NCBI GenBank assembly: GCA_032718475.1
Contig: JAUCBJ010006715.1
Location: forward strand, 1 to 41,884
Reading direction: 5' to 3'
Source of the DNA: Nemertoderma westbladi
Taxonomy: Eukaryota > Animalia > Xenacoelomorpha
DNA: 41,884 nucleotides
Shown: piece by piece, positions 3,178-41,884 of the stretch
How positions within the stretch are numbered: the stretch's first letter is position 1
Layout of the letters: the number at the start of each line of letters is the position of its first letter
Made by a program: the position numbers and the translations under genes
The notes under the pieces: generated by a model
The model's input: the letters and a program-made list of their open reading frames with translations, nothing else
Database searches by the model: none
Told to the model about the DNA's origin: nothing

Positions 3178-3190
3178 TATAAACTGTTAC
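3178..3190 (-). promoter_or_regulatory. Non-tRNA primer-binding site of copy A (GTAACAGTTTATA on the element strand)
   Basis: Directly follows the LTR end, lacks TGG, and is a 13/13 complement of LTR positions 3954-3966. Confidence 0.75.
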
Positions 3191-5880: not shown

Positions 5881-6556
5881 TGTTCGCGCTTTTAGACCAT
5901 TTTAACAGTTTAACCTGATAATTTATATGTCTATTAATACCTGACAGCCCAATACAGATGAAGCCGAAGCCAGTCTAGCACGGCGTATGACCCACCGGAG
6001 GTGGGAGACTGGATCCGATGGCAGAAAGAGCCGTAGGACACTTTGTATTATTCAATTGATCTTTACTATAATCTCCAAAACTATGCTTATTTTCAGTTAA
6101 ATACTAACAGTTCCCTTCAGGTGCTGCGCTCTAAATACTACGCAGAGATATGACTTATACTATGTAATTAGTAATTACAACGGGTATGGGCATGAGATAA
6201 CGCAAATGTTTACATCCTTCAGGGATGTATTTATTAATTGAAGTGTATAAACACTCACACTGAAGGGCTGCAAGAATATTCTTGCCTCAAGTAGTCCACA
6301 AAGCATGAATCATATCGAACGCCGTAGAACGTATGGAACATGCAAGAACTCCCAATCAGGGACCAGTTACCATGCCATCAACCCGTAACCAGTTTCTGTG
6401 GGAATGTACGGGAAAGTGTTGTACTTAGAATAACCGCTGGAGAGAGTAAGTTTACATTAGTTCATAAAATACAAAGTTATTAAGAGTTTTTCAAGGGTTT
6501 AGAGTAACCAGCGCATTGTGTAAAATGGGGACATTTTGGCTGCAAAAGCTTTAACA
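5881..6556 (-). mobile_element. Solo LTR (676 bp) related to copies A and B
   Basis: Element strand TGTTAAAGCTTTTGC...AAAGCGCGAACA, flanked by a perfect 5-bp TSD GTTTT at 5876-5880 and 6557-6561. Confidence 0.88.
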
Positions 6557-7926: not shown

Positions 7927-8973
7927 TTATTGTCTCGCCGTTATAGGTTCCTTCTCAGTAACATTCTCCAATGTTACGGTTTTGTGTACAGGTTTTCGTC
8001 TGTACGCAAACTCGAAGACACCGCAAAACAAAAGAGTCCCAGAGAAAACTAATACAGTAGCCACCCAATGCCACTCAGTAAAAGTGTTTCTGAAATACAC
8101 TATTGAGAACATTAGACTAATAAACTTTCTTAAAGTTATTACCAAAGTTACAAAGAGAGATGTGCACGTTGAGGTTAGAATAAACACACATCTTATACAA
8201 ATATATTGGGTGACAACGTTCGCAAACATCGACATCCACATTGTCGGTATTTGTATACCGAATAGTTGAAACAGAGGATCGGAGTCGTTGATTAGCGTCA
8301 AGTTTCGGTATAAATCTGGTAATATAAAGAGGAATGCCGGTAGCGGTAGCGCGTGGTTGTAAAATAAAGCTTCTCTTGGATATTTCCCGTAAGTTTCGAA
8401 TAAAACCTCTTGGTAAATACCAAGTCGAGCCGATAAAAACAGCGCGAATAACAACATGGAAAGTCCGATGAACCACCGTAATAACGGTTCCATGTCCTCC
8501 TTATCAGTAGGCGTAGCCGTAGACGTAACTGCTGTCGATGTTGTAGTCTTTGCTGATGCTATTGAAGCCATTGTAATCCCCAATGTTATCATAATAACTG
8601 CAAGGTATTTATCCAGGGCGTATTTTCTTTGTCTAAGATAAATTCCCAAAGCCATATTGGCAACCAAAGATCCAGATCGAATTATCATGTGAAGCGGCAT
8701 CGATATATTAAAGTTTAGCGCGTAATTGTTGAAAATACCCACTAGAAAGAAAGTTATAACGAGTTTGGTATATTGAAGAAGCGGAATTTTTGGTTTCTTG
8801 GTGAGGAATTTTGTTTCGAATACAAGTCCGTCCAGAGCAACAAATAGGAACTGCAGACAGGTTATAAGTGGGCCAGCCCCTGGGTCGTATCGGATCATAT
8901 GCTCCAAGAATATTACGTTAATCGTACACGCCAGTAAAACCATAGCAACAGCAAAAGTAACAGTCGCATCCAT
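7927..8973 (-). CDS. SLC35B4: UDP-xylose/UDP-GlcNAc transporter, SLC35B4/YEA4 family, single coding exon, 348 aa
   Basis: Family motifs NVIFLE, NNYALNFNISMPLHMIIRSGSL, SARLGIYQE..YGKYPREALFYNH, TLRKFISL, HWVAT.LVFSGT; multiple TM helices; uninterrupted ORF. Confidence 0.95.
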   Translation of the reverse strand: MDATVTFAVAMVLLACTINVIFLEHMIRYDPGAGPLITCLQFLFVALDGLVFETKFLTKKPKIPLLQYTKLVITFFLVGIFNNYALNFNISMPLHMIIRSGSLVANMALGIYLRQRKYALDKYLAVIMITLGITMASIASAKTTTSTAVTSTATPTDKEDMEPLLRWFIGLSMLLFALFLSARLGIYQEVLFETYGKYPREALFYNHALPLPAFLFILPDLYRNLTLINDSDPLFQLFGIQIPTMWMSMFANVVTQYICIRCVFILTSTCTSLFVTLVITLRKFISLMFSIVYFRNTFTEWHWVATVLVFSGTLLFCGVFEFAYRRKPVHKTVTLENVTEKEPITARQ

Positions 8974-10654: not shown

Positions 10655-13600
10655 TCAATTAATTATTTCTCCCATGTTGTTGTACCAAATAATTCTCGCG
10701 ATTTCAGCGAAAGCCGATGGGTGTTTGCGGATAGTTTCTGGCGTGTGATCACGAGTGTCATTATACGATTCCTTAAATGTAATAAAAACGTAGTTAATAA
10801 TCATACAATTCATACCGGTATTATATATATGGTAAGTACATTATTATATCTATTTGTTGTAAGTCACTTTTTTAGTCAAAGTCGTTAACAAGTTTGACAT
10901 AAAAAGTATAATATTTTTGTTCTAGAAAACTTTTCTTTGTTCTAGAACACATTTTATATTTTTTATACTAGCTAGTTTTTTCTACTTTTTTATAAATGTT
11001 AAATAACAAGTGTTAGTTATCAATTTTGATAAATATTTCTGTTCTAGAACACATTTTTTTCTAGAACATTTTTTGGAATAAAATCCCTTACTACTGTCAT
11101 AAGGTCAAAAAAAATTTTTCTAGAAAAGAAACCTAACGATAAAAGCCATTTTATATGAAAAAAATTGGTCAAACTATGGGTACCCACGGTGTAGTAATGC
11201 CCGTATTTCAATATGGAAGAAACTTCGATGGACGATATTTATGCTGAAATAGGCCAAGATAAAAGTGAGAGAAGACTTACAAAAAATAAAACGACGTAAG
11301 TGGTGGCAAAAAGTAACATTTTTTTTGTCTTGTTTTCTTATTTGTCTCGGTACGCTCGCCAAATAATAACGCTCGTCAAAAAAAGCCAACTTTTTTTTGC
11401 CACCGGACTTAAATAGTTATTTTGTTATTAATTGTAAATTTCGCAGATAACAGCGGTTGTTTCAAAGAGGGGTTTCTAAGATAGATTCCTCTTCCCCGTA
11501 CTTAGTTCCAATTTAAGCCTCAAGCGAATTTAGTTCCACTGGAAACGAATTTAGTTCCAATTTTGGCGAACTTACAGTAGTTCCAATAACTAGAGAAAAA
11601 CGAAAACGAATTTAGTTCCAATGCATGCGAATTTAGTTCCAATGGATGCGAACTTAGTTCCAATGGATGCGAATTTAGTTCCAATGGATGCGAACTTAGT
11701 TCCAATGCAGCGAATTTAGTTCCAATGGAAGCGAATTTAGTTCCAATGTTTCAGGTGTGGGGCGAGCCACGTAGTTGGCTAAGAATCTGTTTAATGCCAC
11801 TATTAGGTTGATGGGTAAATACTAATTGTAAATAACTAACCCAAACAACGCAATCAATTATATTTAATAATTTAAAATGATATTCATAGTAAAAAAAACA
11901 ACGCCCAAGCTCTTAACCCAAACAACGCCCAACCTCCTAACCCAAACAACGCCCATCCACCTAAACCGATACAACTGGTAAATATTGTATTTGGTGTGAT
12001 AATGGCACAATGTGCATGACCTGAGTATATAGGCCTACTGTACTACTACAGTATACCGGTATAGACTTACTGTAGTCAGTCAGTCAGGCAGTATCAGTAT
12101 ACTCGTGATTAATACAGTATATATTTCAAAATGTGTAATTATACTTTGAATTCACTCATTAATAATAAATTCGTATTTAAAAAATGACAGAATGGTTTTA
12201 CAATTATTGTTGACCCTGCCCCACCTCCAAATAGTGGCAATACGAAAAGGCGTCGCCTCCTACGTGGCTAGCCCACGATTGAAACATTGGAACTAAATTC
12301 GCTTGCATTGGAACTAAATTCGCTTCCATTGGAACTAAGTTCGTATCCATTGGAACTAAATTCGATTCCATTGGAACTAAATTCGCATGCATTGGAACTA
12401 AATTCGCATGAATTGGAACTAAGTTCGTTTTGATATTCTGGGATTGGAACTAAGTTCGCCTCGATTGGAACTAAGTTCGCTTTATAAAATTTATTTTGGA
12501 ACTAAATGCGTTTCAATTGGAACTACTGTAAGTTCGCCTTTGAAAATGTGCGATTGGAACTAAGTTCGTGCTACCTCTAAGATAAGAATACAACAGCAGT
12601 CCAATAAAATACTTTCAGTCTTACCGCAGTGAATGGATAGCTTATTATCAACCAACCACTCATACAGAATTCTAGAACTGCACGTAAATGAACTGGGAAA
12701 TATGGACAGGATAATTATGGAGAAAATTAGAGCACTGTCTTCGGCATATAAGATGAGCTTAAAATCGGGATCTATACTACTTATCATATAATTTAAAGCA
12801 TACAAAATGTAGAGGACCTAATACTACGTTGCGGTACACCACAGGTAATATCTTGTACAGTAGACTGCGATATGCTAATGACTAGGCCTACAGTTTGACC
12901 TCTATCTGACAGGTAGAACTGGAACCAGTCTATAGAACCTTCCCATCAGGCCTATCATAGACCCATCAGGCCTAACCTACCTAGCAGAATGTCATGATCT
13001 ACTGTACCAAATTCCTTTAACATTTCAGGCCCATACCCAAAGGCGAAGGCAGGTGCCCCACCGTAGGGTTTCGCCTATGAATTTTATGGAAGACAATTTT
13101 ACTTCATTAGTAATAATTTTACATTTTACACACCCATTTTCTGGTTCCATGCGTCTTCATTAAATATTGATTGTCCCACTGTCAATACTCTATGTAATGT
13201 ACTTGTAATAGGCTGCAGTACACAGTACTGTTATTGCACTGTTACAGTGTACACATCCTTGCAGTAATCAAACACCGGTACATATTAAACTCAGATTGGA
13301 ATTTACTTTCATTTTAACTACCTACTGTAGGCCAACACTGTTACTACAGTACAGTACTGTACCCTTACAGCAGTCATCGAACTATAACCGTAACATCGAA
13401 CAATACTCCAGTAAAGTGTACGTACCTGTAGATTGTTTTGTGTATTATTACCAAAAGGAATGTTCCTCTACACAACTCTCCCCCGCCTTTTATGTGTTGT
13501 GCTCTGTATACAAATGGTGAACGGATAGCGGACTGTACGGTACTGTTACTTTTGCTTTCTACTTACTGTCTTACTGTACACAATTAAATGTATTAATATG

Positions 13601-16108
13601 CATATAGCAGTATAGTGTCTGTCTAGTGCTAGTATGTTTTGTGTGCTGTTTAGTTGTAGTGTATCTTGAGTTGATGCTGGTAGAGTGGTAGTGTTAGTGT
13701 AGTCCTACGCTTTTTTTTAAGTTTTTCTATTTTTTTTTCAATTTCATAATTTTATAGGGTAAACGTCGAAACTGCGGAAGCATTCCGATGGAGGCATCAT
13801 CACTTATTTGCTTTGATTCTGGTTGTCTGGTATGATAGGTGCAGATGATTTTGACGGAATTATTGGCGTCTTCCGCTCACAGAATCCGTGGCGATTAAAT
13901 AATGTTGTAATAAAAATATATTAAAATATTCTATACTAGAGTAGGGTTGATTTTTTAAATTTACCCTGATTTTCCCTCGCCTAACCAACTAAAAAAATCC
14001 TGGCTACGGGCCCAATACAAGTATTATTCTGCGTATGTATATTAATTAAGTATCGCTACTCAGCTACTTGACAGCGTGAGTTAAAATCATTCAAGTATCG
14101 CAATGCTGTCAAGTTCTACACAAAACGAAAAATTTATTGGATATAACTGTTAACTGCAATTACCTTAGCCAACGACTCTCTCCAGTTGTAGAACAGATGT
14201 AGTGCGGTGTAGTTTCTCCAAAGATTCCACTTTGGCTTGGAAACTGCCGTGAAGAGTCTCCCACAGATGCCGAGAGAGACTCCGAATTGTGAATCGGGCA
14301 CAGCATTCACGAGTTCTGGGTGTGGCAGTATCAGGTCTACGGTGGGAACTTCGCCTAACACATAACAAAGAAGGAACATTTTACCTGCACTATAAAATTT
14401 ATGTATTTTTGCCACGAGGGTCTATTATTACAGGCTGCCACACCATCCATCCCCCATTTTGCTAAAATGCTAAAAATTCCTCACAATCTTCATGAATGGG
14501 GGGATTGGTGTGATAGCTTCAGATGATGGCCCTAGTTATATTATAATGATGAATAAATCTTTGTTGCAGGTGAGGATGTACTGGTTGATTATGTTTGTTA
14601 AAAATTGCTGGATAAAAAGAGAGCGACTATGATACGTATAATCATCATTAAATTTTTCCAATTGATAATTTCTTGCCATTGCTGAATGCTGCAAAATGAA
14701 CATTCCATACTTTCACAGACTCTTATTTTTATTGCTCTATTTCTAATATGAGCTCGTCATATTGTAATCATTACATTGTTGATAAGAAGCCGTTAGAAAA
14801 TATATAATAGCATTAGTTTTACTACTCACCCGCATTGTAGTACCACAAACTATCATCAAACTTCGATTCATACGTCGCCAAATATTGCCGCATAAATGAG
14901 TCACCGGGCGGGCACACCAATATCTGATTGCCAATGAATGCTTCAGGGTCTACATCCCTTGGCAACCCTATTGAACAGACATTGAGGGATCTGAACCTCT
15001 GGAAACTATTAACCACTAGTACGTCGTTATCCAGATAGATTCCCCCTTCCGCTATCAATAGCTGGATTCGGAATATATCAGAAGCGTGTTGCACAACCCC
15101 TACTGGTTTCCCCGATATTTCTGTTGGTTTTTTAGCCGCGACAACCTAAAAAGTGGAGTGAGATAAACTTTTAGAGCCAAACTACTCACTCTCCTCAACC
15201 GGTAGCCATAACTAAATGGGTACGGAGCAAACTTTGCCCACATCCAATCTTCGCCCGGAGCAATCTTCGCTATCAAAATGGGTGTTAACAACATCGTTTA
15301 TTGCTTTGGTTAGAAAAAGCCGTCTCTGTAACCTGATCCTTTCTCACAATCGGGTGAAGGATGGACGTGGGCGAAGATGGCACTCGATCTAACTAAGTTA
15401 CACAGTTGTAAAGTATATGAACGCCCTCATTAAAGTAGATGTGCTTGAAATTTATATTGCTTAAAATTACCTCACCAATATATATTTGCATTGATTATAT
15501 TGCGATTAATATGGCGTCCCTACATGTCCGTTGTCGTTGATATACTTTATCTACTTTGTACATTAAATATCCACTTATCAACAATATCAACTAAAGGCCG
15601 GTTTACACATGGCAACTTTTTGAGCAACTTTGTCGGCAACCTGGGTTTCTCTTGCTCTACAAGTTGCTTTAAACGTTGCCATGTGTGAATCGGCCGTTGC
15701 TTTTATCAAATATTATATTAAAGATAGGTAATAATTTTAAATATTAATGCTAACACTTATTCGCTTTCCAAGTCTGCGTGATGCCTCCATCCAATAAGGT
15801 CCAGTCAATTGCACATTGGTGTGAATTTTAATAACAGTAGGATTAATGTTTCGGGAGGCTGCCAGAATGCAGAGAGCCATAGGAAATGAAATATTCCCGT
15901 TATCGAACTGAACAAAGTGGACAACATTCGGGACGTAACCCTTGTCGTAAGTCATCCATAAGATGTTTAGGTTGAATGAGTCGTTAATGAGGCTTTTTGG
16001 TATTTTGATAATGACCAAGACGAACACGAGACTTATGAGGATAGTTTTAAGACCCAATCGTCTTTGCAAGCAATTTAATATTGATCTAATGATATTATTC
16101 ATCATCAT
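10655..16108 (-). CDS. GT32-family alpha-1,4-glycosyltransferase (A4GNT/A4GALT-like), 4 coding exons 16108-15755, 15145-14830, 14354-14164, 10771-10655, about 325 aa
   Basis: Type II TM anchor, VPNVVHF, HASDIFR, GGIYLDND (DXD motif), WYYNAG, C-terminal PETIRKHPSAFAEIARIIWY. All three introns are GT-AG with compatible phases 0/1/0, and the spliced frame is open to TGA. Confidence 0.88.
11495..12570. repeat. Foldback element with inverted arms of a 21-bp minisatellite (GAATTTAGTTCCAATGnnnnC), in GT32 intron 3
   Basis: Forward array at about 11495-11750 and reverse array at about 12280-12570. Inner unique inverted repeat AGCCACGTAG / CTACGTGGCT. Confidence 0.85.
12600..13030 (-). pseudogene. 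CR1/L2-type LINE reverse-transcriptase fragment
   Basis: Degenerate WF..YLSDR.Q, CGVPQ, LILYAEDSAL (YADD motif) and WLVDNKLSIH..KTESIL. Confidence 0.75.
15596..15695. mobile_element. 100-bp MITE (PIF/Harbinger-like GGCC ends) in GT32 intron 1
   Basis: GGCCGGTTTACACATGGCAAC / GTTGCCATGTGTGAATCGGCC near-perfect palindrome. Confidence 0.7.
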
Positions 16109-16715
16109 ACATATTTTAAGTAGATCATGACCTAACTCCTTCACTGTGTAATCTAAATATCTAATCACGCTGTGAATAATCTCCGATTTTGTTTGTTCAG
16201 TGGGATCATGTTTGCGTCTAACATGCACATGTTTTTTGTAATTAGGATTGAGACATATAGGTTGTCCTGTGGTGTCACGTTTGGTTTGCCCAACGCTGAT
16301 ACGTTTCTATTTGTGTTTTTTAGATCGAACCATAATATAGGTTGTGCACAGAGTGGTTTACTTGGAACAGTATGGGTGTACTAAGTACAATAATCTTGGC
16401 AACCTCATCGATTTATACTAAGCCTGTGTAGAAATGCATTACATAAGCCATTTATCATCACGACACCAGCTGTTATTGGTGTTATTAGGAACCGACAGGT
16501 TACTTTCTGTAAGAATTGTTCGATGATTGATTGATTGATTGACTGGCTGGCTGGCTGATCTACAGCGAAAACTACTTTAACGATTTTGATGTTTGGGTGG
16601 TCAAACGCTGATATGTTTGTAAGTCACATGACCCATGTCATCGACCCCCTGCCCCTGCCAGCCCATAGGTGCAATAGGATCGAAACGTAACTGTTTGTCC
16701 AACCAGTAGCTCCGA

Positions 16716-16791: not shown

Positions 16792-16999
16792 GGGCCTGTT
16801 TTCTCATTTTCCTTACCTTCTTGCATCTTCACCCTCTGCTTGCGGTAGCCCCTGACTTTTACAATAGTAAAAGTTTTTATATTTTTAACGGCATTTTTAT
16901 CTGTAAATAGTATTTATGTATTTTCTGCAATTTCTGTAATATATTTTAATTTATTACTGATTATAACAATATAATATATAGTTCCGGCAGTTCTCAATG

Positions 17000-19900
17000 A
17001 CTTCAACCTTGTTTTCTTCTCAACTCCCCATCCCATACAGTCCACTTCATCGCATGCTAACGGGAGGTGTCTAATCGCCCTCTCACTTGATAAGACCCGA
17101 CAGAAGAGGCGCATTCTCCCCCTCTCCTTCTCCCAACTCTGCGCCATTCCTTACACTAAGGACCGGATCTCAGACTTCGATAGGACACACTATGAAGAAC
17201 TAAACCGAATCTACCCTCAGAGGATGCAAGAGGTCAACAAAGGGCGCTCTAACTGCTCAGCTAAGGACATTCTAGCTCTAACCCTGGAAACCCCTGATCT
17301 ACAGGTTCATGTTCTGCTACACCTGGCCAGGTTGCAGCAACACAAGGCCATGCTCCTTGATGATTTCGATCTTCTCCTCTTGAAGACTGTTGACGAGGAA
17401 TCTGCTGAACTTCTCTCAGATGAGTTGGAATCTGAACACGACCGGATCCTTGACTTGGAACTCCAACTGGCTCATTTCCAGAAACTCGCCACCAATGCTG
17501 TCCCTTCGGTCCACCCCGACAACGAGTCCCTCGCAGCCTCGTCAGCCGTCGGTGTGAAAGCCCTGATCTCAGCTAGTACGCTGCTGAAACTCTCTCCCAA
17601 CCTTCTTGGGAGACCCATTGGACAGGCGCCAGTATCATGAACAGTTTACCATCTTGGTTGACTTCGACAATTGGACCATCCCGGCGGTCGCAAAGTTTGT
17701 TCACCTGTGCAACTCTCTTCGGGGGCCCACCCTTGCGGCTGTACAGGGGATCAAGTGTGGGAGTGGTGCCTATGTAGCAGCCACCAAGGAACTTGTCAGT
17801 CGATTCGGCGAGCCGAACGTCCTCATCACCCTCTACAGTCAGCATCTTATCAATGCACCCGCAGTCTCGGACATCCAGACCAGCTCCGCGCCTTGGTCGA
17901 CAGCTTCACATCCTCTGTTCGGGAGATGCAGTCACTCTTTGAGGAGATTGAGACTCATGGACTCAATGGAGAAATGGCCCCCAGCGCCTTCTCCACCAAA
18001 CTCACCAGACTGCTTCTAGCTCCTCAGCTTATGGCAAAGCTACCCAAGTCCATTGTCTTGTAGTGGAACCAGAGGAAAATGGACCGCACCCCATGATTCA
18101 TCACAACCCTGGCGCCCTTCTGGTCTTGGTGAAGACTGAACTGGAGGGCCTGGAATTTTACAAACAGTCTAGAGAGTGTCCCAAGCAGCCGGAGTCCAGA
18201 CCAGTGCTGCCGAGGCCTTCACCTCACAAGCCCTCGGTCACCTTTGCATCGAGGTGTGCGTGCCCCTTCTGATAGAGACGGCGGTCGATGCATAGCCGCA
18301 TTTCAGGAGCAGTGCCTCTGCATCAACTGCCTCTCTCCTGACCACTTCTCAGCCGCTTGTTCTCGTTGTCCTGGTTGTCGGTCGTGCTCCTCCAAGCACC
18401 ATGGTCTGCTCCATGGCGAACTCCACGCCCCTCAAGATGGATGCCGTAAAGTGACTAACCCCTCCCTGAACCCCACTGCTTCTGAGTTACGTCCACCACC
18501 AGTCAAGACGAACCCTAACTGCTCTCAACCCGGTGTTGCGCACCTACTGACTGCTGTGGCTACTGCTCACCATCCAAGGCGACCCACCGGCCAGTCGATC
18601 CATATTCTCTTCGATTCGGGCTCCAAAGAATCCTACGTTACTCAGGACCTCACCGAGTATCTCGGTCTCCCAACCCAGGAGGTTGCTTCTTTCGCCTCAG
18701 AGGCGTTCAGCAGTCTGATCTCACCAGTGACACAGTGGCAGAAGGTCCATATCGTGCTCTGCAAGGGGAGCTCCATTCTCAATGCCAGCCAGCGCTTGGG
18801 TGGTCGACACCATATGTTCTCCACTCAGCCCACAGAACCTCCAGGATTCCTACTGGCTGACCATCGACCTCACTGACCCAGACCCTTCGGTTCATCAACC
18901 CACCGATTTCCTCCTTGGTGCCGACCTTCTTCTGAAAACTCTTCTTCCCAGGATACAGGTTGAGGATGGAGTGTTGGCTCAGAACTCGATCTTCGGCTGG
19001 ACTCCACTCGGTCGACCCTCACCCAAGAACGCTGCTGTGTCATGCACCTTCCGGGTCCACACGCGAGGCCTGGAGTCACTTTGGGATTTAGACACCTTTG
19101 GCATCGGATCAGACTCTGACGACCAACCCGTCATAGTGTACATCTTGCCACCCTTGGTGGACAATCATTATGAGATTATGGATGCCCTGGATAGATGATC
19201 GCAGGACAGCTAACAACTACAACTGGGTTCCCCCATGCAGGTTGAGCCTCAATCACCTGGAAGGACTGGAACAGCTGGAGTAATTGGGGTATCTCGAGCG
19301 ACCTCATATCCTCCTCCCAATGCTTACTACCTCCCACACCATGCTATGGTGGAGCATGGCAATACTCGGGTGGTCTACGACTGTTCTAGGAAGTCTCCCA
19401 ACAGTCTCTCGATTAATGACTGTCTGAGGACTGGGCCCAACCTTGTATCCCTTCTGTTCAGCGTCTTGCTTGGTCATTGCCTTCGATTCTGCCTTCATCC
19501 CTGTGTGGCGATTGGGGATACCGTTAAGGCGTTTCACCAGATTTCAATCACTAACTTCGAACACTCCTCCCTCTGCGTTCAGTCAGTGGAAGCAGATACT
19601 GAAGAAGGTTTACAAACTCACAGATGACTGGGATGTGGAGGTCCCAAGAGAGATAAGTAAACTATGGGATAAGTGGAAGAGGGATCTGGAAGATATGGGA
19701 ACATTAGTATGTCACGGGTATACTTCCCAGATAGAGACATGACCAAGTTGGAACTACACATGTTATCCGATGCATCCCTAGAAGCATATGGTGCAGCGCT
19801 TTATTTGGTGCCGCAGAAGGTGACTCACAAGCCCAGACTAGCATTTAGCAAAGCGAGGTCAATACCGCCGGATTCAGCTTCAGTACCAAAGTTGGAACTT

Positions 19901-21543
19901 ACAGCTGCAAGGTTGGGGGTAAGAGTGACACCGTATTTGGAGGATGTTATACCAAGCATAGTAGAGACACACTATTGTTCAGATCCCATGGTGGTACTAG
20001 GATGGATACATAAGGAGAAGACGCACTATCCCATATTTGTAGCAAATCAAGTCGATGAGATAAGAGCAACAACAAACTTGGATAAGTAGCACTACTGCCC
20101 AACGGATGATAATCCAGCGCACTTGCTCTCGAGAGATGTAGTACGCCATGCTTTCTCAGGAAAGCAAGAGTTGTGGCAGCATGGTCCACACTTCCTCAAT
20201 GATAGGTCGAAATGGCCACCGATGAGGAAGATTGATCCAAAATGAGAAGAAACAATAACAATGGAGGTTGAGGGAAACGAATCGGAGGGTGAGGAGATAT
20301 TTAGCCAGTTGGTGAGGGAGATCAGTGAAGCGCCACTACATGTCACCAAGACAGACACAGATGAAAATCCAACAGATAAGTTGCTCAGTTACAGCTCTAG
20401 CTGGTATAAAATGAAGAATCTAGTAGCATACATGAGAGCCTTTGGCAAATTCGTTGGGGGAGCCGATACAAACGGGAAGCATAGACCGACCATTGATCTG
20501 GAGGGAGCAGCCAAAGCCGTAATATGTTACGAGCAGGGGAAGGCATACGGAGACGAGATCAAGTTGATTAACAACTGAGAACGACTCCGGTAGGACTTCA
20601 AGATACATACATTGTCGCTACAATTGGACAATGACAGCATCCTGGTGATGAATTCCAGGGTAGCCAATGACACCAGAGCCTTGGTCCCATCGGAACCGAT
20701 AATAATTACCCAAAAGTCAACCAGATCATATGTGACTCCCATAAAACCATAGTACACGGCGGATCCAACGCAACCCTTAACGAGATACAGAGGATGTATT
20801 GGGTCAACCAACTGAGGAAGATGGTGAAGTCAGTGGCAGGACAGTGTCAAACTTGTCAGCAGATGAGGAAGCCGAGGGTCATACAGGAGATGGCACCATT
20901 ACCGGAAACGAGGATGGCGCACCACATAACGCCATTCACATATAGCAGTGTGGATATGTTTGGTCCGATAAAGATCAAAGTGATGCGGCACACGGAGAAA
21001 CACTACAGGATAATCTTTGTTTGTAACAACTCAAGGGTGGTAGCGATAGAACTGGCGCAGGATGCAGTGACATCGTCGGCATTTATAAATGCATTGGAGC
21101 GATTCATAACCCAAAGGGGTGGAACTACAGTCACAGACACAGACTTTGCTCTATGGTGCTCTATTCAGACAATGGGACCAACCTCATTGGAGCGGAGAAT
21201 GAGTTGGTGGAGGCCTTTGACATTCTGGAGGAAGAAGATGTAAAGGGAGCAATGAGGAAACACCTTATAATGTGGGAAAGGGGGACACCACACACGCACC
21301 ACACATGCTGGGATGCATAGAATGCCTGGTCAGAAGCAGTAAGTGGCTAATGACGACGCTTCTCAACAACCACATGGTGATGGAGGATGTACTGAGGACA
21401 GTGCTGGCAACATGTGAAGGGGTAATCAACAGCCGACCACAATGTCCCTTGAATGATGATCCAGAGTCCATGGAGGCTCATACACCAGCGCACCTACTAA
21501 GGGAGAGGCCAGCAGAAGTAGACATGGAATACATTGACAAAGA
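17000..21543 (+). mobile_element. Degenerate BEL/Pao LTR retrotransposon gag-pol (left part)
   Basis: Gag, Zn knuckles CINCLSPDH..C / CRSC..KHHGLLH, protease LFDSGS, RT start YYLPHH..RVVYDCS..SINDCL.TGPNL, RNase H LHMLSDAS..AYGA / PKLEL.AA, integrase C..C, VDMFGP, SDNGTN. Many stops and frameshifts. Confidence 0.93.
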
Positions 21544-21920
21544 CAGGAGCCCTTAAAATTGCTAGAATCACTATTACCTGATTGGTTTTAAACTGGGTAC
21601 CTAGCAACGGCATCAGCTGGTTTCAAAATGCCATATTGCTGATATGGTGACAGGAAATAGTGCGGGTTTTGCGTCCAGTTTCCCCCCCTGTCTCTGAATA
21701 GAATACACAATTAAAATGATTTAATAGCTGTGCAGTATAACTTTATTAGTTTTGGGCATCGTGTTAAGGGTGGTAGGGAAATCCTAGCCTTTATATTTTT
21801 CGTAATTACGATCTAATTACTCTCCTCATCTCATGACATGGTTGCTCTGGCAATGGAATAAAACATCGACATCATCTGCATCCAAGAACATCGGATTTGT
21901 CATGAAGACACTGCCATGAA

Positions 21921-22278: not shown

Positions 22279-22587
22279 TGAAGTACAATGACATTGGAAA
22301 TGGATGGACGTTAGTAACAAGCTCAGCAGTAAGAATCTCGGCCAATGCATCAATTGGTGGAGTAGGAATTCTGCTAAGCCCATTTGCACTTAAGACCCTA
22401 AACAACATCGAATCTATAAATTCCAGGGTTATGATTGTGATTATTAAGTTTATGACTCACTTATTATCATTGCTGTACCGGTACTGCTGTATTATGTTGA
22501 TTGACTGACTCACCTATTATCGTTAACTATATTATATTTCACAATGGTTATTATTATTACAATATGATGTTATATAAATTTAAAACA

Positions 22588-22599
22588 TGGTAGCAGAGC
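22588..22599 (+). promoter_or_regulatory. tRNA-iMet primer-binding site
   Basis: TGGTAGCAGAGC immediately after the LTR; the known GalEa PBS. Confidence 0.9.
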
Positions 22600-22609
22600 G
22601 TAAACAATA

Positions 22610-25510
22610 ATGGTGATGGCTAGGGAAAATACCGGTACCGGTACCGGTAATCAGAAGATGCTAATAAAGAATCCACCGATTTTCAACTTTGAACGAGGTA
22701 AGTACCGTAATTGGAAAAAGGAACTAGCCTTGTGGTCGGCTGTTACAGATGTGGCGAAAAACAAGCATGGAGCTCTTGTGACTATGGGGTTAGTAGGCCG
22801 TGCGAAAGATAAAGCATTAGTATTAGATGTTTCCATTATAAATCATCAAAATGGTTTAGACAGAGTAATTGAAGTTTTAGATAAAATTTACCTGACTGCA
22901 GATGATGACTATGCTTACGAAACATATACCAAGTTTAAATTATTCATACGTTCAGCCGATTTAGGAATGCGTGAATATATCTTAGAATTTGAAAAGTTAT
23001 ATTCGGAAATGAATTCCTGCCAAATGAATTTGGGAGATGCTGTTTTGGGTGCTGAATTACTCATGAAGTCTGGTTTAGAGGAAAAAGAACGTCGCATTGT
23101 TATGGCGTCTAGTAAGCTTACTTTTGATAACATTAGGTCTACTTTGTTAAGAATTTACACATCAGCAGCCGTACACATGCCTTCTGTAATACCTGAAACT
23201 TACGGTAGTGAAAGGGAAATTAAAACTGAACCAACATTTTCGACACAGAATTACCGAGGCGGATACTTTGGTGGATATCGTGGTCCTGCATATAGAGGGC
23301 AAGGTGGACGACCTGCTTTGTTTAGAGGTAACTACTTCAATCGACGATATAACTTTAATTACAATTCAGGAAATAGGAATTCAACAATCTACAGTCCAGG
23401 TCGACAAGTTTCGGGATGGTCAGGTAGAGAACCTGGTTGGGAACAAGGTCGACAAGGTGGTTCAGGTCTGAATAGCGAACGTCGATGTTCGATTTGTGAT
23501 TCGACAATGCATTGGCGAAGGAATTGCCAACATGATATGGGTGCGGGCGCAAGCGCAAATTGGGCTACAGAGGTTAGGCCAATAGATGAAGAAAGCCATG
23601 AACCAGAAAATCGGAATTCGGGAAATTCATTGTATGCCATGTCATTAATTATCACAGGTGAGAATTATTTTAATAATCAGAACAACGGACCATATGGGTT
23701 GGCAGATACAGCCTGTAGTCGAAGTGTTGCCAGTCTTGAATGGTTTAACAGTTTTTGTAAATATTTGCCAGTGAAATTCCAGAATCTCGTGCAGAAACAT
23801 TCATCATCAGCTATTTTTGTTTTTGGTGGTGGTGAGAAAAGATATGCATTATTTGAAGTAACAATACCGATTTGGATCCAAGATAAACAATATAGTTTAA
23901 CACTTGATGTAATCAGAGGTAATCTTCCACTGCTGATTTCAATTGTGTCATTGAAACGGATGGAAGCCAGTATCGATTTAAGACAAAATGTGATTTCAGT
24001 TAAAAACATATCCGTTTTATTACATTATTTACCAAGAAGTGGTCATCCTATATTACCTCTATTTTCAAAAGATCAACAATATGTTTTAAATAAAGGGAGT
24101 GATTTCACCACATTACTCGCTCATGATGGAGAAATAAATAGGCCTAGAGAAAATAAAATACTAACAAATAATGAACTTATAAAGCTCCACAAGCAATTTG
24201 GTCATTCAAGTCCTGAAAAATTGCAAAAGTTGTGAACTAATGGAGGTTACAAAACAGATAGTAAGAAAATTCAAGATATTTGTAATTCTTGTGACAATTG
24301 TATAGTTCATAAGAAGCCTGTTGCTCGACCTATTGTTACTTATTGTCTTGGAAATTACTTTAATGAATTTTTGGCGGTTGATTTAACTGATATTTTTGAT
24401 AAATCATCGAATAAAAGTTTTAAGGCCCTACATGTGATTGATTTATTTTCTCGATATAGTGTTGTGGTTAGGGTTCGTAGTAAGGACACTGATGTTATTC
24501 AAGAATCATTTCTTCGAAATTGGATTTCTATATATGGCAACCCCAAAGAGGTTTTAGCTGATAATGGTGGTGAGTTTAGTGCAAATTCATTCACTCAAAT
24601 GTGTGATCAATTGAATATATATCACAGAACATCTCCCCCTTACTGCCCTTTTGCTAACGGCACAGTGGAGCGTCATAATGCGTTAATTAAGGAGACTTTT
24701 CAATGGGTTCAGATGGATCAACCCGAATTGTCTGTAGACACTGTTTTACAAATGTCTGTTTTTGCAAAGAATTGCACTTTAAATCATACTGGTTTTTCGC
24801 CATATCAATTGGTGTTTGGGTGCCAACCGATTATTAATTCAATTCTTACGGATCAATTGCCAGCTTTAGAAGAAACATATATGATTTCTATGGTTGGGAA
24901 ACATATTCAGGCTATAGTTTCTACTCGGAAAATTACGTTGCTGCTGAGTCTAGTGCAAGGATTAAACGTGCTTTACGATCGAATACCCGTCAGAATGGGC
25001 AGAGATATAATGCTGGAGATCAAGTATATTGTCGTCGAGCTAAGGATAAAGTTTGGGCTGGTCCAGCTGGGGTTGTTGGTCAGGATGGTGCCGAAGTTCT
25101 TGTTAAACATGGAAGTCGTTATTTGCGATGTCATCGAACTCAAATACTATTGCGTACAAAGCAGACATATTCCCAAGAACAAATAAAATCTGTTAATTCA
25201 CCTGAAAACACTTGCAATGAACTCTTGCAAGAACAAATAAAATCTGTTAATTCACCTGAAAACTCTTGCAATGAACTAAATAATAGTGCTGATATTCATG
25301 AAATAGAGTCTGATAGCGACATTGAAATTTCTAATGAAGAAGTGGAAAATAATATGCAGCCTGAGACAAATGCAACTATTGGAACTGATAACTTTCTCAG
25401 ACAAGAGCCAATTCCTAAAGTGAATGAGAAAGAAGGTAAAGTAGAACAATTGCGCCGATCGACCAGAGATAAACATAAACCTGATTACTTTTCATTTATC
25501 TCCGAATTTA
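22610..25510 (+). pseudogene. GalEa gag-protease-integrase polyprotein (in-frame stop at 24233, frameshift near 24930)
   Basis: CSICDSTMHWRRNC knuckle, ADTACS protease, H..H/C..C zinc finger, AVDL / DNGGEF / NGTVERHN catalytic DDE, W.GP..V.G.DG motif. Confidence 0.88.
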
Positions 25511-25519
25511 ATCAAGTTC

Positions 25520-27576
25520 TTTATGGTGGTTGGTTAGCTTTTTCGACCAGCAAGCAAGTTGATCGATCTCCATGCCTGGGATGATTACCTGCTGTCGTCA
25601 GCATCATTGATGGCATCAACCTGTTGGTTTATTAGCTACTGTAAATTAACAGAGTACTGCCTATTCAGGGACCTAGATGCAGCCTTAACTGCATTCTTGG
25701 CCGCTGTAGTCTGTTTGAGTCGGGACTCTTTCTGCGCCTTGTAGAGGTCATTTCGGCACTTCTGAATTTTGTTGTCAGTCCAGGGGGCCCGTTTTCTGTT
25801 TCGAGGGTATACAGGAACTGTTTCTGCAGCTGCTAACTTAACTGCCTCTGTGAAGGCAGTATAGCCCTCACAGTGATCTGCCACCTCAGAGGCAAGAACC
25901 TCATACCTGTTGCTCAGCTGTAGTGTGAAGCTGGATCTCACACTTGGCTGTTGCAACAGAGAGGACCAGTCATGCCGCGGCAAGGCAGATTTCGTTGTTC
26001 TGCTAGCACGCAGACTAAGTCTTACCTTGGCCACAATAAGGCGGTGATCACTGGAGAAGGGTCGTAGTGTAAATGCATTACAGTCTTGTATAGAGCTCCT
26101 GTATTTCCTACGAAACAGGATATGGTCTATCTGGGACTTGTCACCACTGGGCCCACTATGAGTCCATAGCTTTCCAGTTCGCTTCTTGAACTGGGTTCCA
26201 GCCGAAAACAATCCATTTCCAGAGATAAAATCCTGAAGATGGACGGAATTTCGGTTAACACTATTGCTATAGACCCAGGGCGATGTAGGTGATTGATGCA
26301 GACTTGCATTAAAGTCTCCCAGGAATGTTAAGAATGCATACTGATCCACTCCATCAGTAGCTGCTTGTAGATTCTAAAATTAGATATTCGATATTAGTAG
26401 ATTCTGGTAGAAATTTTCCACCTCTTCTACAGGGTAACACTAGTTGGAGAGTAGCACACAATCAGAACCACCTTAGGAAACTTCTTAGCCAGTCTTCCAG
26501 AACATGAGAAGTGGCAATGGATGATGCGGTTAGAGATTTGGTCTATTTTGTCCAATGCTGCATGTGCAGTTGGATTCATCAATAGACCAATTCCACCATT
26601 GCCACTATCATCTGCTGAAGCGAGGGCGAGTCGCCAACCGCCCCCCATGTCCTTAATCAGAACCTCATCAGTCTGTCCAGTCTGCATTCGGTGCTCTTGA
26701 ACACCCACTGCACTAAGAGAAAGCTTATCTGCCAAGGCAGTCAGCTCACCTTGTCGCATTGGGGACCCGAGTGTTAGGGTGTTTACTGAGGCTAGTCTAG
26801 TGACTTGCCTCAGATTCACCAATGGCTTTGTTGGTCGGGGTGGAACATGAGAGTAGCCTCCAACTCCAGAATCCCTCTCCCCCTCACAATCTGGCCTCCC
26901 TGGTGACCCAGGGTTTGGGCCAGAAAGGTCATCAGGAAAGGGACTCAAAGAATTGTTTGCCGCCCTCTCTCCAGTAGGGGGTGAGACAGGCAGCCGGTCA
27001 GGAGATAAATGACGCCTGTGAGGCCGATTGTGTCCAGTCATTCCACTGGCCTCTAGTGGCTGGACCTCCTCATTACAAATGTAATCCATAGTGGGGGTTG
27101 GGGGGTGCTTTTTGCCGAGTCAGCTCTCGGGGCAAATACCACACCCTGGTTTGCCATTCCACAGGGTCAGTGTCGCAGTGGAGTCAGATATGAGGCCCAT
27201 CACCCATATCTACTCTCGCGCACATGACCCACCATTGGCTGTGCAGCTCATCTGCTGGGTCATGCCCTGTACCCCTGTTGCCAGGTGCAGGTCGCAGTGA
27301 AGTGCACTCAGAGTGGACATGAGAACACTCTACTCCTGACCAGCCATTGGTAGATCACCATCTGCCTGGCCAGGCCATATACCCCTGCAGCCAAGTATAT
27401 GGGTCCTTAATCCAGAACCAAGGGCGCCCTTATCCCAGAACGAAGGGGGTCCTAGTTACAGGACCAGATTTGCCCTAGTAAGAGGGTCTATGCAGCTACA
27501 GGTGGCACCTCCTTTATGCTGCATGGAGGTGGCAAGTTTTCTTGATCAATGACCTAGAATACCTGACCTGACCTGA
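25520..27576 (-). mobile_element. 5' part of a second RTE-like LINE (5' UTR + endonuclease), antisense within GalEa
   Basis: ORFs 26427-27089 and 25636-26349: VQEHR, GGIGLL, CYSPT, GDFNA, IDHIL, SDHR. 5' end marked by (CAGGT)3. Confidence 0.88.
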
Positions 27577-28330
27577 ACTGTACCGTACTGCTGTATTATG
27601 TTGATTGACTGACTCACCTATTATCGTTAACTATATTATATTTCACAATGGTTATTATTATTACAATATGATGTTATATAAATTTAAAACAATGATCGCA
27701 ACATTTGATGGGAATCCCAAGGCAACAGTTATATGTTGCTACAGTCCAACCAATGCCTCTGAGCCAGAACAAGCAGTCAAGTTTTATGAAGAACTGACTG
27801 GACTTATAAAGGACATTCCGAAACACAATGTTAAAGTCATTGCTGGTGACCTGAATGCGCAAATTGGCCCAGAAAACATCAAGGGTTACACCTATAACAC
27901 CAGTTCTAACAGAAATGGGTACTTGCTTACTTTTAGACCTAATGGAAGAATGTGAATTGATACCAACAAACAACACATTCGAAAAGAGTAAGGGGAAGCT
28001 ATGGACCTTTCAATACCCTAATGGAACCAAAGCACAACTGGATTACATCCTTATAAACAAAAAGTGGAGAAACAGCATGATCAACTGCGAGACATACAGC
28101 TCGTTCAACCTAATTGGTTCGGACCACACAATTGTGACTGTAGAGATCGGACTCAGTTTGAGAGCCAGCAAACCCAGGGCAAATTAAATATGACTGGGAG
28201 AAACTCAGAACTGACAATGCTGTAAAGGATGTTTATACAGTAGAAGTTCAAAACCGCTTTGAAGCACTTCAGTCAATGGATGAAGACCAATCCACCAATT
28301 CAATATACCAGAATATAATAACAGCCCACA

Positions 28331-36574: not shown

Positions 36575-36728
36575 GCAGGACCTTATCGCCCCTGGAACCT
36601 TATGGCCCCAATAAATTGCATTTTTGTTGGGAATTTCTCCCCCCCCCCCTGTTCTGAGTTTTTAAGAACTTATCGCCCAGGAGTCTTTCGCCCCCGAGTC
36701 GTTATCGCCCTGGTCCTTTATCGACCCT
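36575..36728. repeat. TTATCGCCC motif array (DNA-element subterminal repeats) interrupted by LTR B
   Basis: About 6 spaced copies ending at the LTR start. Confidence 0.5.
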
Positions 36729-37930
36729 TGTAAAAGCTTTTGTGGGATAACTGATTCGTTTGCCTTGTTGGCCAGTTCCCCCCCAGTCGCTAAGAATACT
36801 CTCAAAGTGATCTATAACTAAAAATAGTGCAAGTTACCAGCTTATTGGCTGATTTGCTGTACGCAGGCATCTGGGCTCTGTTTAATCGGCCAACAAGCCT
36901 AGGGAGGTTGCGTCATAGCCTTGTTTTGTATCTCCCAATAGAATTTGAGTTAGCCTTGATCTTGACCTATCACAGAGTACTGAACTGAAAATTTCCTATC
37001 TCACTGCTCTTTCTCTGTGTTGAACGGGAGCTTCGTGGAATAAGGGAGTTGGTATCCTCGTATAGAGCAGTAGTCACGAGTTTTTCAAAGCCACGAAAGA
37101 ACGGCTTTTTAGTGTTTTGTGCTTTCTGCTTTTTAGCTCAACACTAGTAGGTTTAATTATAAGGACATATATCCTTTAACTGGCTGCAATTACGCATCAA
37201 ACAACCTGGCTTTAAACTCTGTAAATATCAAAACAAACTGGCACGATTGATCTGTGAATACTGCATACTGCTTTTTGTTGTCGGTTATTCATTATATTTG
37301 TTGATGAATTATTATATTGGAATAACGAGAAATAACCCCGACACCCAATATTCTTGATATACCGAAGGTAAGAGAGAAAGGTTACCAATAACGATTGTGA
37401 CTTATGTTAAAGTGGTTTGAAGTGAATCTAATGTTATTTGATAGACCCTACATGAGTCAGTCTGTGTTCCTTTTATATGTGATTAAAATCAGTGAAGATT
37501 GGCAGATAAGTGTGCAGTATTGTGCAGCATTGCGTATGAGTGAGTCTGTTAAAGAAGCAATTCCTAAAGAATGCGCCATATATGTGAATTATAATTAAGC
37601 CATATCGTTGTGAGTAGTTTAAGTCATAACTCTGTTTATATAGATAAAGCGCCACGTCCTAAAGGAACTGTTAATATTCCCGAAGATAAATAATATTGTC
37701 AGAGATTATATAATACTGTCAGTCGAATAATACATTAGGCTTACATAGCAACAAAATTAAACCGTCGAACCCAATCTCCCGGGAATATCCAGCGGGTGAA
37801 TGGTCGCGCACGGATTGGTTTCGACTAGTGTAGTGAATCAAATACTTGTCATAGGCTAAAAAGCGATTTAATATCTAGAAGACATCTTAATTTGGCGGGT
37901 TAAACTGCCAAAGGTCTGAAAGCGCGAACA
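36729..37930 (+). repeat. 5' LTR of copy B (1202 bp)
   Basis: TGTAAAAGCTTTTGTGGG...AAAGCGCGAACA. Confidence 0.88.
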
Positions 37931-37942
37931 TTAAAGGATATA
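37931..37942 (+). promoter_or_regulatory. Non-tRNA primer-binding site of copy B (TTAAAGGATATA)
   Basis: 12/12 complement of LTR positions 37168-37179 (TATATCCTTTAA). Confidence 0.75.
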
Positions 37943-38225
37943 GCTTCTTTGTTGCAGTAAGCAATAAAGTTGAAAGTACCGGTCAACCGGTAAACCTGAA
38001 CGGTACACCTGTAGGTCAGTAGGCCCAACAGCTAGAACCGGTACTGCCGTATAAGTACACTAGTATTATTCGATTTGATTGTTGTATACCGGTAGGCTGT
38101 TTGAGGGATTAGGGATTGATCACCCCTTATACCTTTATATGGTTTACTTATTTCTGTCAAGTTTTATTTATTTGTAGGACAGTATTGAACAGAAGGCGTG
38201 TAAGCCTGATCAGATTGTACAGACG

Positions 38226-38785
38226 ATTTGTAGGCTGAGCTGTTGTCTGATTGCTGTTAGGTCCGAACGAATTGCAGTGTGTGTAGATCACCTGTCCGAT
38301 TAAGTACGGTTAGGAAGTAGGGGCAGCGAACGCTGTAAGGTAAACCCCCAACTAAAGAATAAGTCGCACTACTGGGTTAGAGCGCATACTCCCTAATCAT
38401 TTCGGAGTCTGCATGGCCTGTAGTTTATTTAGGCTTGAGAGTAGTCTGCCATCGTTTAGTCTGTACTTTGTTTGTGTAAGTCTGTACGGGTAGCGTATAA
38501 TTTTATTTAGATAATTTGTAGGCTGGATAGTTGTCTGGCTGTTATTAGGTCTGAACGGATTGCCGCGTGTGTAGATCATCTGTCCGATTAAGTACGGTTA
38601 GGCAGTAGGGGCAGCGAACGCTGTAAGGTAAACCCCCAACTAAAGAATAAGTCGCACTACTGGGTTAGAGCGCATACTCCCTAATCATTTCGGAGTCTGC
38701 ATATACCGTAGTTTGTTTAGGCTTGATAGTAGTCTGTCAGTGTTCGGTCTGTATTTTGTTTGAATAGTTTGTACGCGTAGCGTAA
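38226..38785 (+). repeat. Tandem duplication (period 288 bp) of the structured leader domain, copy B
   Basis: TCCGATTAAG at 38295 and 38583. Confidence 0.9.
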
Positions 38786-40113
38786 TATTTATTATTCAGA
38801 GTTTATGCGATTATCCGCAACATTCATTCCCCAAGTTTGTTCCTACAGTAATTGTGTTTGTTATACATACCGCTATAGTTAAATTAACCCCGGTACTACA
38901 CGGGCTGCTCGGCGTAGGTAAAGACTGGTGATTTTGTGCATCGGTCACTCCAGCAGATGCCGTGGTTCTTTTAGCTGTTCAAGTATATTTAACTACTGAT
39001 TATCTGTTGTACAAGTACTCGTACCTAATTTAGGGTTTAGTGTACAGTACTTTCCGAAGTAATTAGTGTAGGCATTATATTTGTGTTGTAAGGTGGTTGA
39101 TAGGCACATTCGATTAGCTCTATTAACTTCTAGGTAGGAACACTCCGTGATACATAACGTAGAACCTATAGCGATACGGCTATAGGTCGTCAGGCGGTGG
39201 TATTTTCCTATCTGGACAACGCAGTGTATTTACTACTACTTATTATTTCAAATACCGTAGTACCCTGTCCGTTGTAATAACCAGTTTTCTAACCCTTTGT
39301 TAGGCTGGTTTGTAGACTTCTTGTAAAATAATACCCTAAAAATTGCGTATTTTGTGTTTTTGTAAATTTTTGTGTTTATTTAGAGATTGTAATCTCACCC
39401 GAATTGTACGTAATTTGTAGTATTAAGTAACTTAGGTAAATTAGTATTATTTGTTTTAGTGTCCTATACGTAACACTTCACTAAAAGCGCACTGCTTTGT
39501 GTAGTGATTACCCCAGAAATAATAACATTTATTTCAAACATTGACTAAACCCATTAAAACGGGTATATATATATTATAAATCAAATCTAACGATTTATAA
39601 ATAGTAGGCCTACCATATAACAACTAGGTCTCCATATCAGTTGGACTACTGCTCAAATAACGGTAATAAAGTAAGTAAAGTAACAAAGTAACCCTAAAGT
39701 AACAGAAATTCAATTATTTGAAATAATTGATATACCGGTATTTACGATAGGCCTATTATCTTTATTTCTATAAATCTAGGCTGAAATTATACCGGTACTT
39801 GTAATTAATTCTATTTCAGAATTATATATCCTACAAACTGTAAGCTGTATACCGGTATTCCAGATAGGCCTATTATATATTATATATATTTGTGCTAAAT
39901 TTATACCGGTATTCTGTGATAAACCTAGTCTGTGATAATACTTATATAGTTATATATACTATAAGTATACCGGTATTCTAATATATTATATATATATCAC
40001 GCTACACTGAGTAGCCGTACCGGTAATTAATTATTAGGCTAACAGTTAATACTGAGTTACTAGACTTGCTCAGACTGTAATACAGCAGTAGACATTCAAC
40101 GGTATACATAGTC

Positions 40114-41884
40114 ATGTCTGATACTAAGCAGAACCTGTCAGACAGTATATTAGATGTAACTATCTGCGACTCAGATAGAGACGTACAACCGTCTGGTCGT
40201 AAATTCAGTTCACCCCCCACTGTGAGGAAGGTCATCCCTCCAGTAGTAATAACAGAACCTAGGCTAGTCCAACATCGTAGGTCTATCATAGGCACTCGAG
40301 CTCAGGTCAAGCGGGACCAACAAGCAGCGGAACAGCAACAACCCGCTAGTCAAGAACTTATTCCTCAGCGGCCCAGCAGCTCCAGTAGTGAGGATACTGT
40401 AGAGCTGACACCCGAGAGCGGAGCAGAGAGGACGGATGCGGTTTATACGGATCCCCTTCTCATCCTTCCTGCAGCCGTGCTCAGCTGGGTTATTGATCGC
40501 GGTGGAAGAACACCAGATCGATTGGGCGAGGAGTCAACGATCAACTAGAGATAGTTATGCGGGGTACACGAGGGAAGAATTGAAGTCTATTGTCGAGTCG
40601 CAATGGAACTTCCCCGGACCCGGACTCCCGTTTGATTTATCAGAAGCTGCCTGGGAAGACATACACCGGATGGGAGTAGCCAAGGAAACCATCGATCCAG
40701 CTGTATGGAAGAGGTCCGCAGCCGGATACGCACAGGGATTCTTCAGCTCTATGGAGCGAGTAGAAAGACAACTATTTAAACAACCTCAAGGACCTCAAGA
40801 GCAGGAACAGCTGCTTTATCAAGTTAGAGAAAGAGTTCTGCGAATTAGGCTAATCTTATCCGCCTTTGAGGAGGCTTCTAAAAGAAGACAAGACACGTCG
40901 TTGCAAGTTGCCGTAAAGACTTGGCTTCAAAGGGTGAGACGCCAGGTTCAAGGAGCAGCTCAGTGGAAAGTTCAGTTGGAGGAGCGCTCAACACAAGGAG
41001 AATCGACAGACGCTACTTTCTCCCAAGTGGAAAGTGAAGCGACGGCAGAGAAACCGCATAAGAAGGATGCCATTGATATCTATCTGTCAGACTATCAGCG
41101 TTTTGTGGGAGATGAAGAGTTGAGGAGAAGGCTAGAGGGACTTAGCCCTAATAGCGAAGGAGCCAAACTTGTGTTAGATGCGATTGATGTGGATAGGTTA
41201 GCGGCGAACCAAGCTAAATTCGATGAACAACTCCGCATCGCTAGAGAAAAGGAAGAGCAAGTAAGGAAAAAACGTATAGAAGATAGAAAGACAGCAGCAG
41301 CAGCAGTGGCAGCGGCAGAAGCGGAAGGAAAAGCGGCAGCGGCAGAAGCAGAAGGAAAAGCGGCAGCGGCAGAAGCGGAAAGAAAGGCAGCAGAGGCAGC
41401 GGCAGAAAAGAAAGCGGCAGCGGCAGAAGCACAAAGGAAAGCGGCAGCGGCAGAAGCGGAAAGAAAGATAGCAGTGGCAGAAGCAGAACGGAGGGCATCT
41501 GAAGAGACAACCCAACTAGAGCTGGAAAATCTTCAAGAGAGGCAAGATAACTTTAATAAACAGTTAACAGCTAGTAATATGCAGATGATGAATCGATCTA
41601 CTCCCAAACGACAAGGTTATACATCATCTGAGGAAGGCGATACCACCGACGCTGAAGGCGGAGGAAATCGATCCCGCCTAAGCAGACGTAAAAGAACATT
41701 CCACCGTCAGAAATTGCCTGATTTGCCTCCAGCTGTTAGAAGGCAACTAAATAATACCAACTTAGAGAGTACAGAACCCACAAATCAAATAATTACAATA
41801 GAAAGACTCCCTACTATAGTAGATGAGCCTGAAATAAGTAGGCCTGTTCTTGAAATCACCCCTTCGGTAATAGACACACCTGGG
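40114..41884 (+). CDS. Gag-like ORF1 of copy B with one +1 frameshift (probably near 40452); open to the window edge
   Basis: MSDTKQNLSDSIL... then, in the +1 frame, ...DAIDIYLSDYQRFVGDEELRRRL...(AAAAEAERK)n with no stop; homologous to the copy A ORF. Confidence 0.72.

Follow-up and report, generated by a model that had tools for sequence, protein, structure and literature searches.

How does an LTR retrotransposon begin reverse transcription when no tRNA primer-binding site follows its LTR? The question is raised by a window of 41,884 nucleotides from Nemertoderma westbladi (contig JAUCBJ010006715.1), in which a single LTR element is present as two 5' halves, copy A on the minus strand and copy B on the plus strand, alongside a solo LTR, copy C. 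The three LTRs are located as follows.

36729-37930, plus strand: 5' LTR of copy B, 1202 nt, TGT...ACA, with ends set by the other two copies and by where contigs end
3191-4443, minus strand: 5' LTR of copy A, 1253 nt
5881-6556, minus strand: solo LTR C of a sister family, 676 nt, TGT...ACA, with a 5-bp target duplication

The LTR end is fixed because a target duplication, AAAAC on both flanks, brackets solo LTR C, and the LTRs of A, B and C share the same final 12 letters. The sequence-only reading, made from the letters before our analysis, had relied on C in this way. The duplication bears this out, but C is only 76-82% identical to A and B across the ends and is, judging from this divergence, a sister belonging to another subfamily. 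The 3' LTRs of copies A and B fall outside the window, and the evidence from TG...CA ends and target duplication comes from this sister. Contig ends fit the LTR of B as well, with one piece starting at 36729 and long loose ends behind 37931 and 37934. The window itself starts and finishes inside ORF1 of the A/B family, on opposite strands (1-4443 and 36729-41884), which suggests that the assembly breaks at this high-copy repeat.

Directly behind its LTR, each copy carries a candidate primer-binding site (PBS) for which a complement is found within the LTR of the same copy.

37931-37942, plus strand: primer-binding site of B, abutting the LTR end, no TGG
37168-37179, plus strand: putative self-primer of B, exact reverse complement of 37931-37942
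3178-3190, minus strand: primer-binding site of A, abutting the LTR end, no TGG
3954-3966, minus strand: putative self-primer of A, exact reverse complement of 3190-3178

This complementarity had been pointed out in the sequence-only reading, and every coordinate was correct, with 12 of 12 letters pairing in B and 13 of 13 in A. We could also confirm that no TGG of a tRNA site is present at 0-5 nt after the LTR of A or B, that the complement is flush with the LTR edge (zero spacer in both copies), and that the LTR sites occupy equivalent positions, starting 763 nt (B) and 776 nt (A) before the LTR end. A local alignment treats the two LTR sites as homologous, with a shared CTAGTA...AATTAT motif preceding both. 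The 41-nt shared motif is by itself not significant (315 of 2000 shuffles reach its score), and a MAFFT alignment displaces the two sites by ~25 columns.

A coincidental match, or a single inverted duplication passed down to A and B, could also account for such a pair. The 12-mers are AT-rich and the two copies are related, their leaders being 80% identical, but the expectation is 3-5e-4 per copy: an order-2 Markov model of each LTR yields 4.8e-4 (B) and 2.9e-4 (A), and simulated LTRs gave such a match in 16 of 20000 (B) and 9 of 20000 (A) cases. Each 12/13-mer occurs once per strand across the window, and offset 0 gives the longest match among ~2170 (B) and ~2200 (A) leader start offsets. The sequence-only reading had further stated that the A and B sequences differ strongly. 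This was too strong, as 9 of the 13 columns are identical, but the four that differ (three substitutions and one indel) are all matched in the element's own LTR, and cross-matches of the B site in the A LTR, or of the A site in the B LTR, reach 5 nt only. An inherited duplicate would decay separately on each side, whereas 4 of 4 differences are matched here. Chance or duplication is thus very improbable. The primer:PBS pair is free of G-U and ends at the same TATA letters in A and B. The linkage between site and PBS was examined in these two pairs, contigs being too short to link both. We conclude that the PBS-LTR complementarity is real and selected.

Neither PBS matches solo LTR C beyond 5 nt, and a pattern scan of viral contigs for the signature returned 0 matches. 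Five pattern matches among metagenome contigs were dropped as chance, having no similarity to the window (E<=1e-4) and no PBS complement longer than 6 nt. In copy A, the LTR end, PBS and next hairpin are duplicated 84 nt downstream (3064-3112 versus 3148-3196, 96% identical), and 11 nt of the downstream duplicate still match the primer. The A primer region (3950-3975) and the region of the U5-end hairpin in solo C (5903-5926) are alike in 10 identical letters and 9 upstream; from this likeness, a common origin of the A primer site and the U5 end, or competition between them, is conceivable.

The surroundings of the LTR site were compared in public sequencing runs. Six runs contain the stretch, none of them recorded as RNA, and we compared four, from four studies, using contigs only, in which summed depth is no copy number. 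It is our guess that one of these, run X5, is RNA. The A/B family is abundant and varied, with 48313 contigs on 36600-41884 in run X1 alone. Two segments stand out.

37131-37182, plus strand: island common to many family variants, likely core promoter and primer, where depth peaks between flanking loose ends in 4 of 4 runs
37183-37265, plus strand: variable spacer between the primer and the conserved R-U5 block, with a depth drop of ~30-fold or more and an A/B identity of 48-56%

In all four runs, summed depth on 37090-37295 climbs from ~37131 to a maximum at 37153-37159, remains high at 37174-37180 and has collapsed by 37188. The values at the peak, at the still-high stretch and after the collapse are 527k, 209k and 6k in X1; 321k, 175k and 6k in X3; 5564, 3675 and 0 in X4; and 30, 23 and 0 in X5. 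Among the 19 of 30 loose ends listed, 9 of 9 behind the match, carrying unlike letters, fall at 37178-37186, and 6 of 10 loose ends before the match fall at 37130-37141, about -38 to -27 relative to the site. Two contigs jump the spacer and join 37178 to 37265 and to 37273. The ~45-nt island stops 0-7 nt past the putative primer, with variable DNA directly after it. If the site represents +1, the island would span about -38 to +15, as a core promoter followed by a primer.

TATA-like motifs in the same region count against priming from the RNA 5' end, as they would place the start ~30 nt downstream, past the site, and hence the site in U3. TATAA is found 10 nt upstream of the B site, where an extra A creates TATAAA in part of the contigs (2942 of 5429 depth, or 54%, in X4; 15 of 30, or about 49%, in X5; 8% in X3; 0.1% in X1), and the A site itself begins with TATAAA. 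Initiator-like letters of the TCA type are located ~31-34 nt past the site start in both A and B. The site would then be positioned between a TATA box and the start, and the primer would derive from the LTR copy at the RNA 3' end, or from an upstream or partner transcript. We consider this unlikely. The -10 motif of B is missing from A, so that the two motifs are at non-homologous places, and variability is highest in the DNA 30 nt downstream. A primer derived from the 3' end would moreover need two cuts to acquire a fixed 5' boundary, and a 3' copy of the B site would be masked by the preceding letters, which fold onto it through 5 bp. Priming by a poly(A)-signal sequence was discarded, with AATAAA and ATTAAA absent from both sites and candidates ~580 nt downstream, and a splice-junction primer is unnecessary, the site being contiguous. 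A splice-donor-like AG/GT(A/T)AG is found at the same place in the R-U5 block of both copies (37368, plus strand; 3762, minus strand) and is absent from C.

The R-U5 measures ~760 nt, a long way to be spanned by an AU-rich pair of 12 bp, and this counts against 5'-end self-priming. We folded a domain made up of the terminal 220-250 nt of the LTR with the adjoining 160-240 nt of leader. The predicted elements are listed below.

37723-37733, plus strand: U5 arm of the outer duplex in B, pairing with the leader arm 38063-38073 (P 0.99), same letters in A
38063-38073, plus strand: leader arm of the B outer duplex in the predicted fold
37739-37755, plus strand: U5 arms of the PBS-adjacent (3'-side) duplex, pairing with 37948-37962 (P 0.73-0.83)
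37948-37962, plus strand: leader arm beside the PBS, with an alternative local hairpin at 37948-37968
37804-37809, plus strand: U5 arm of the inner duplex, pairing with the LTR end at 37922-37927 (P 0.66 free, 0.39 with the PBS held open), B only
37891-37912, plus strand: U5-end hairpin with a GUUAAA loop, kept in A and weak in C
3140-3174, minus strand: leader arms of A, pairing with U5 3411-3383 (10+9+9 bp, P 0.94-0.99)
2956-2967, minus strand: leader arm of the A outer duplex, pairing with 3428-3417 (P 0.99)

The U5-leader domain is more stable than 100 of 100 shuffles, with z-scores of -3.6 (B) and -7.2 (A). An outer U5-leader duplex of 11-12 bp is predicted in A and B with P 0.99 and the same letters. 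The PBS-adjacent duplex begins 6 nt (B) and 4 nt (A) past the PBS, with partly different letters, and comprises 8+6 bp in B and 10+9+9 bp in A, the latter via a U5 insertion. Taken alone, both duplexes are modest: the outer one is reached by 54 (B) and 24 (A) of 3000 shuffles, and the PBS-adjacent one by 269 (B) and 51 (A) of 3000. The 5'-side inner duplex is predicted in B only and is absent from the best fold of A. RNAalifold, run on the two rows A and B, misaligned the PBS and reported local hairpins only.

A U5 stretch in A (3286-3276) competes for the PBS with P 0.71. To open the PBS takes 1.1 kcal/mol in B and 2.5 kcal/mol in A, whereas the duplex yields -11.6 and -13.9 kcal/mol, a comparison that ignores loop geometry. 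Of 16 transcript models, 3 retained the primer:PBS pair under nested folding. Cofolding of the primer with the U5-leader domain revealed no binding, by a method that cannot model pairing into a closed loop. Insertion of the primer into an enclosed PBS loop would generate a pseudoknot, which explains both the 3 of 16 nested models and the empty cofolding. Because both methods forbid pseudoknots, their failures are weak evidence against pairing.

That the region is rich in long-range duplexes also suits a structural role for the pairing, in packaging, as a dimer or as a translation switch, with priming left to a host RNA such as half a tRNA. The last seven letters of the A primer are presumably shaped like an anticodon loop, which counts for a host tRNA. 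Half-tRNA sites without TGG are described for some Copia lineages in PMC6317226. A structural role combined with a host primer nevertheless seems quite doubtful to us, since A and B would require two different tRNAs, and since the primer:PBS pair is perfect and flush with the LTR end, whereas other helices in the region tolerate G-U and bulges. No tRNA gene was found, and Rfam gave no match at E<=1 over 36700-40200.

Returning to self-priming, we judge it probable that the A/B family primes reverse transcription from its own RNA 5' end, in a Tf1-like manner and across the ~760-nt R-U5. Here, transcription would start at the first or second letter of the LTR site, and the RNA 5' end would span the R-U5 and thread into the PBS. 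The U5-leader duplexes would hold the PBS in a loop, forming a pseudoknot like the Tf1 'pretzel'. A cut just 3' of the primer would follow, probably made by the RNase H of the element, and the primer 3' end, flush with the LTR CA, would be extended into U5 in minus-strand synthesis. Retroviral plus strands acquire their PBS by copying the primer, and plus-strand synthesis here would likewise later copy the primer back into the PBS. Such copying would explain why every change is matched, the indel included, why G-U pairs are missing and why the 5' boundary is fixed at the TATA letters. The self-priming proposed in the sequence-only reading is well supported by the compensated changes, the island ending at the site and the predicted duplexes flanking the PBS.

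The coding part of the element was examined next to its leader.

37943-40113, plus strand: non-coding leader of B, 2.2 kb, with a 288-nt tandem duplication at 38221-38762, 80% identical to A
40114-41884, plus strand: ORF1 of B, in overlapping frames 40114-40548 and 40409-41884, open at the window end
3-962, minus strand: ORF1 of A, one frame, ~470 nt shorter than B in mid-ORF, running off the window

ORF1 encodes a helical, Ala-rich coil, and a low-confidence single-sequence fold of its residues is all helix with a mean pLDDT of 49.6. Its description as a coiled-coil gag holds for the coil, but no homologue was found and the gag identity is without support. The part of ORF1 present up to the window end has no match in Pfam, and no DUF1759. 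Two word-indexed searches and the Atlas returned no match, PDB sequences none at E<0.3, and viral and prokaryote contigs none. Two matches among 1.84 billion representatives were discarded as low-complexity artefacts. Within the window, which ends in ORF1, the A/B family has no pol (RT, RNase H or integrase). The family may belong to BEL/Pao or Gypsy; a choice of BEL/Pao would be a guess, and ORF1 shows no likeness to the N-terminal ORF of a neighboring BEL remnant. Contigs skip 550-880 nt of ORF1 (40155-41036, 41067-41620), and internally deleted, non-autonomous copies are likely common.

That remnant is a decayed BEL/Pao element at 16975-21556, with DUF1759, an integrase zinc finger and many stops and frame breaks, for which no LTR pair was found. 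A second LTR element at 22474-27691 has two identical 107-nt repeats, an integrase core at 24236-25186 and LINE pieces inside. Its PBS, TGGTAGCAGAGC, corresponds to the metazoan GalEa tRNA-Met site given in PMC5445492 and provides a tRNA-primed control in the same window; with a normal TGG site in this neighbor, tRNA priming is recognizable in this genome. The window further contains a single-exon gene for an SLC35B4-like nucleotide-sugar transporter (7927-8973, minus strand), whose protein is only 47-55% identical to its best 120 matches, from sponges, annelids, echinoderms, a crustacean and vertebrates. This points to an animal with no near kin in the protein collection, probably an invertebrate. 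A host gene resembling a DXD glycosyltransferase (Gly_transf_sug) is represented by exons at 14822-16306 on the minus strand, and 11521-12556 contains inverted arrays of a 21-nt repeat ~600 nt apart, which are MITE- or foldback-like.

We compared the A/B family to other elements for which self-priming has been reported. In Tf1, the first 11 nt of the transcript prime from the PBS following RNase H cleavage (PMC7175516, PMC5341516), and a central duplex is flanked by two further duplexes, in which sequence beside the PBS pairs with LTR sequence downstream (PMC10085805). In the A/B family, the 3'-side duplex of this pretzel is predicted in A and B and the 5'-side one in B only. The criterion applied to self-priming in PMC6317226 is a complement to the LTR of at least 10 bp that starts 0-5 bp after it; the 12 and 13 nt of B and A, flush with the LTR, agree with this and with the length and position seen in Tf1. 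Tf1, Tf2, Tj1, Tosmo and the Tf1/sushi chromoviruses (Ty3/gypsy) share with our family the lack of a tRNA site, a PBS of 11-13 nt flush with CA and a complement in the LTR, as far as these sources describe them. Extra duplexes beside the PBS and in U5 are a further likeness to Tf1/sushi (PMC7175516, PMC10085805, PMC4600332, PMC5341516), predicted in the case of our copies. By its sequence signature, the A/B family would work like Tf1. It differs from Tf1 in its 1.2-kb LTR, in the ~760 nt from primer to PBS, in its 2.2-kb leader and in its orphan ORF1; the LTR and leader of Tf1 are much shorter.

Self-priming in print extends to Tf1/sushi elements of fungi, vertebrates and non-seed plants, to Tcn1 and to the plant Copia TAR lineage (PMC6317226, PMC4600332, PMC10085805, PMC3601003). 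For Copia TAR (Houba, Osr-1) and the moss Tcn1 clade, it was likewise predicted from PBS-LTR complementarity alone, according to PMC6317226; these elements differ in having plant hosts, and the A/B family is without a shown sequence link to them. Elements with the Conserved Hairpin Site, fungal GalEa and a bivalve TRIM, have no tRNA PBS and form a hairpin right after the LTR (PMC5445492, PMC6934838). The A/B family likewise can form a hairpin right after its PBS. No LTR-internal complement is described for Conserved Hairpin Site elements, whereas that of the A/B family is exact. In the open literature, we found no report of self-priming in invertebrates, and none in BEL/Pao, as the sequence-only reading had supposed; subscription papers and repeat databases lie outside this scope, and supplements may list some cases.

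The self-priming mechanism itself is thus already known, and what marks the A/B family is its extended R-U5, together with the island and an orphan ORF1. That 5'-end self-priming arose independently in an invertebrate lineage outside Tf1/sushi, with an unrelated ORF1, a convergent U5-leader scaffold and a PBS rewritten in each cycle, is a possibility that we put forward tentatively. Self-priming is experimentally established for fission-yeast Tf1; in its clade and in a single Copia lineage of plants it is a prediction. If the A/B family primes itself, a high-copy animal family with a far longer R-U5 would join them, the mechanism would be more widespread and would probably have arisen again. 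The element may then no longer depend on tRNAs from the host and may escape silencing mediated by tRNA fragments, and the genome-wide expansion of the family would represent a natural mutational scan of the rules that govern the primer.
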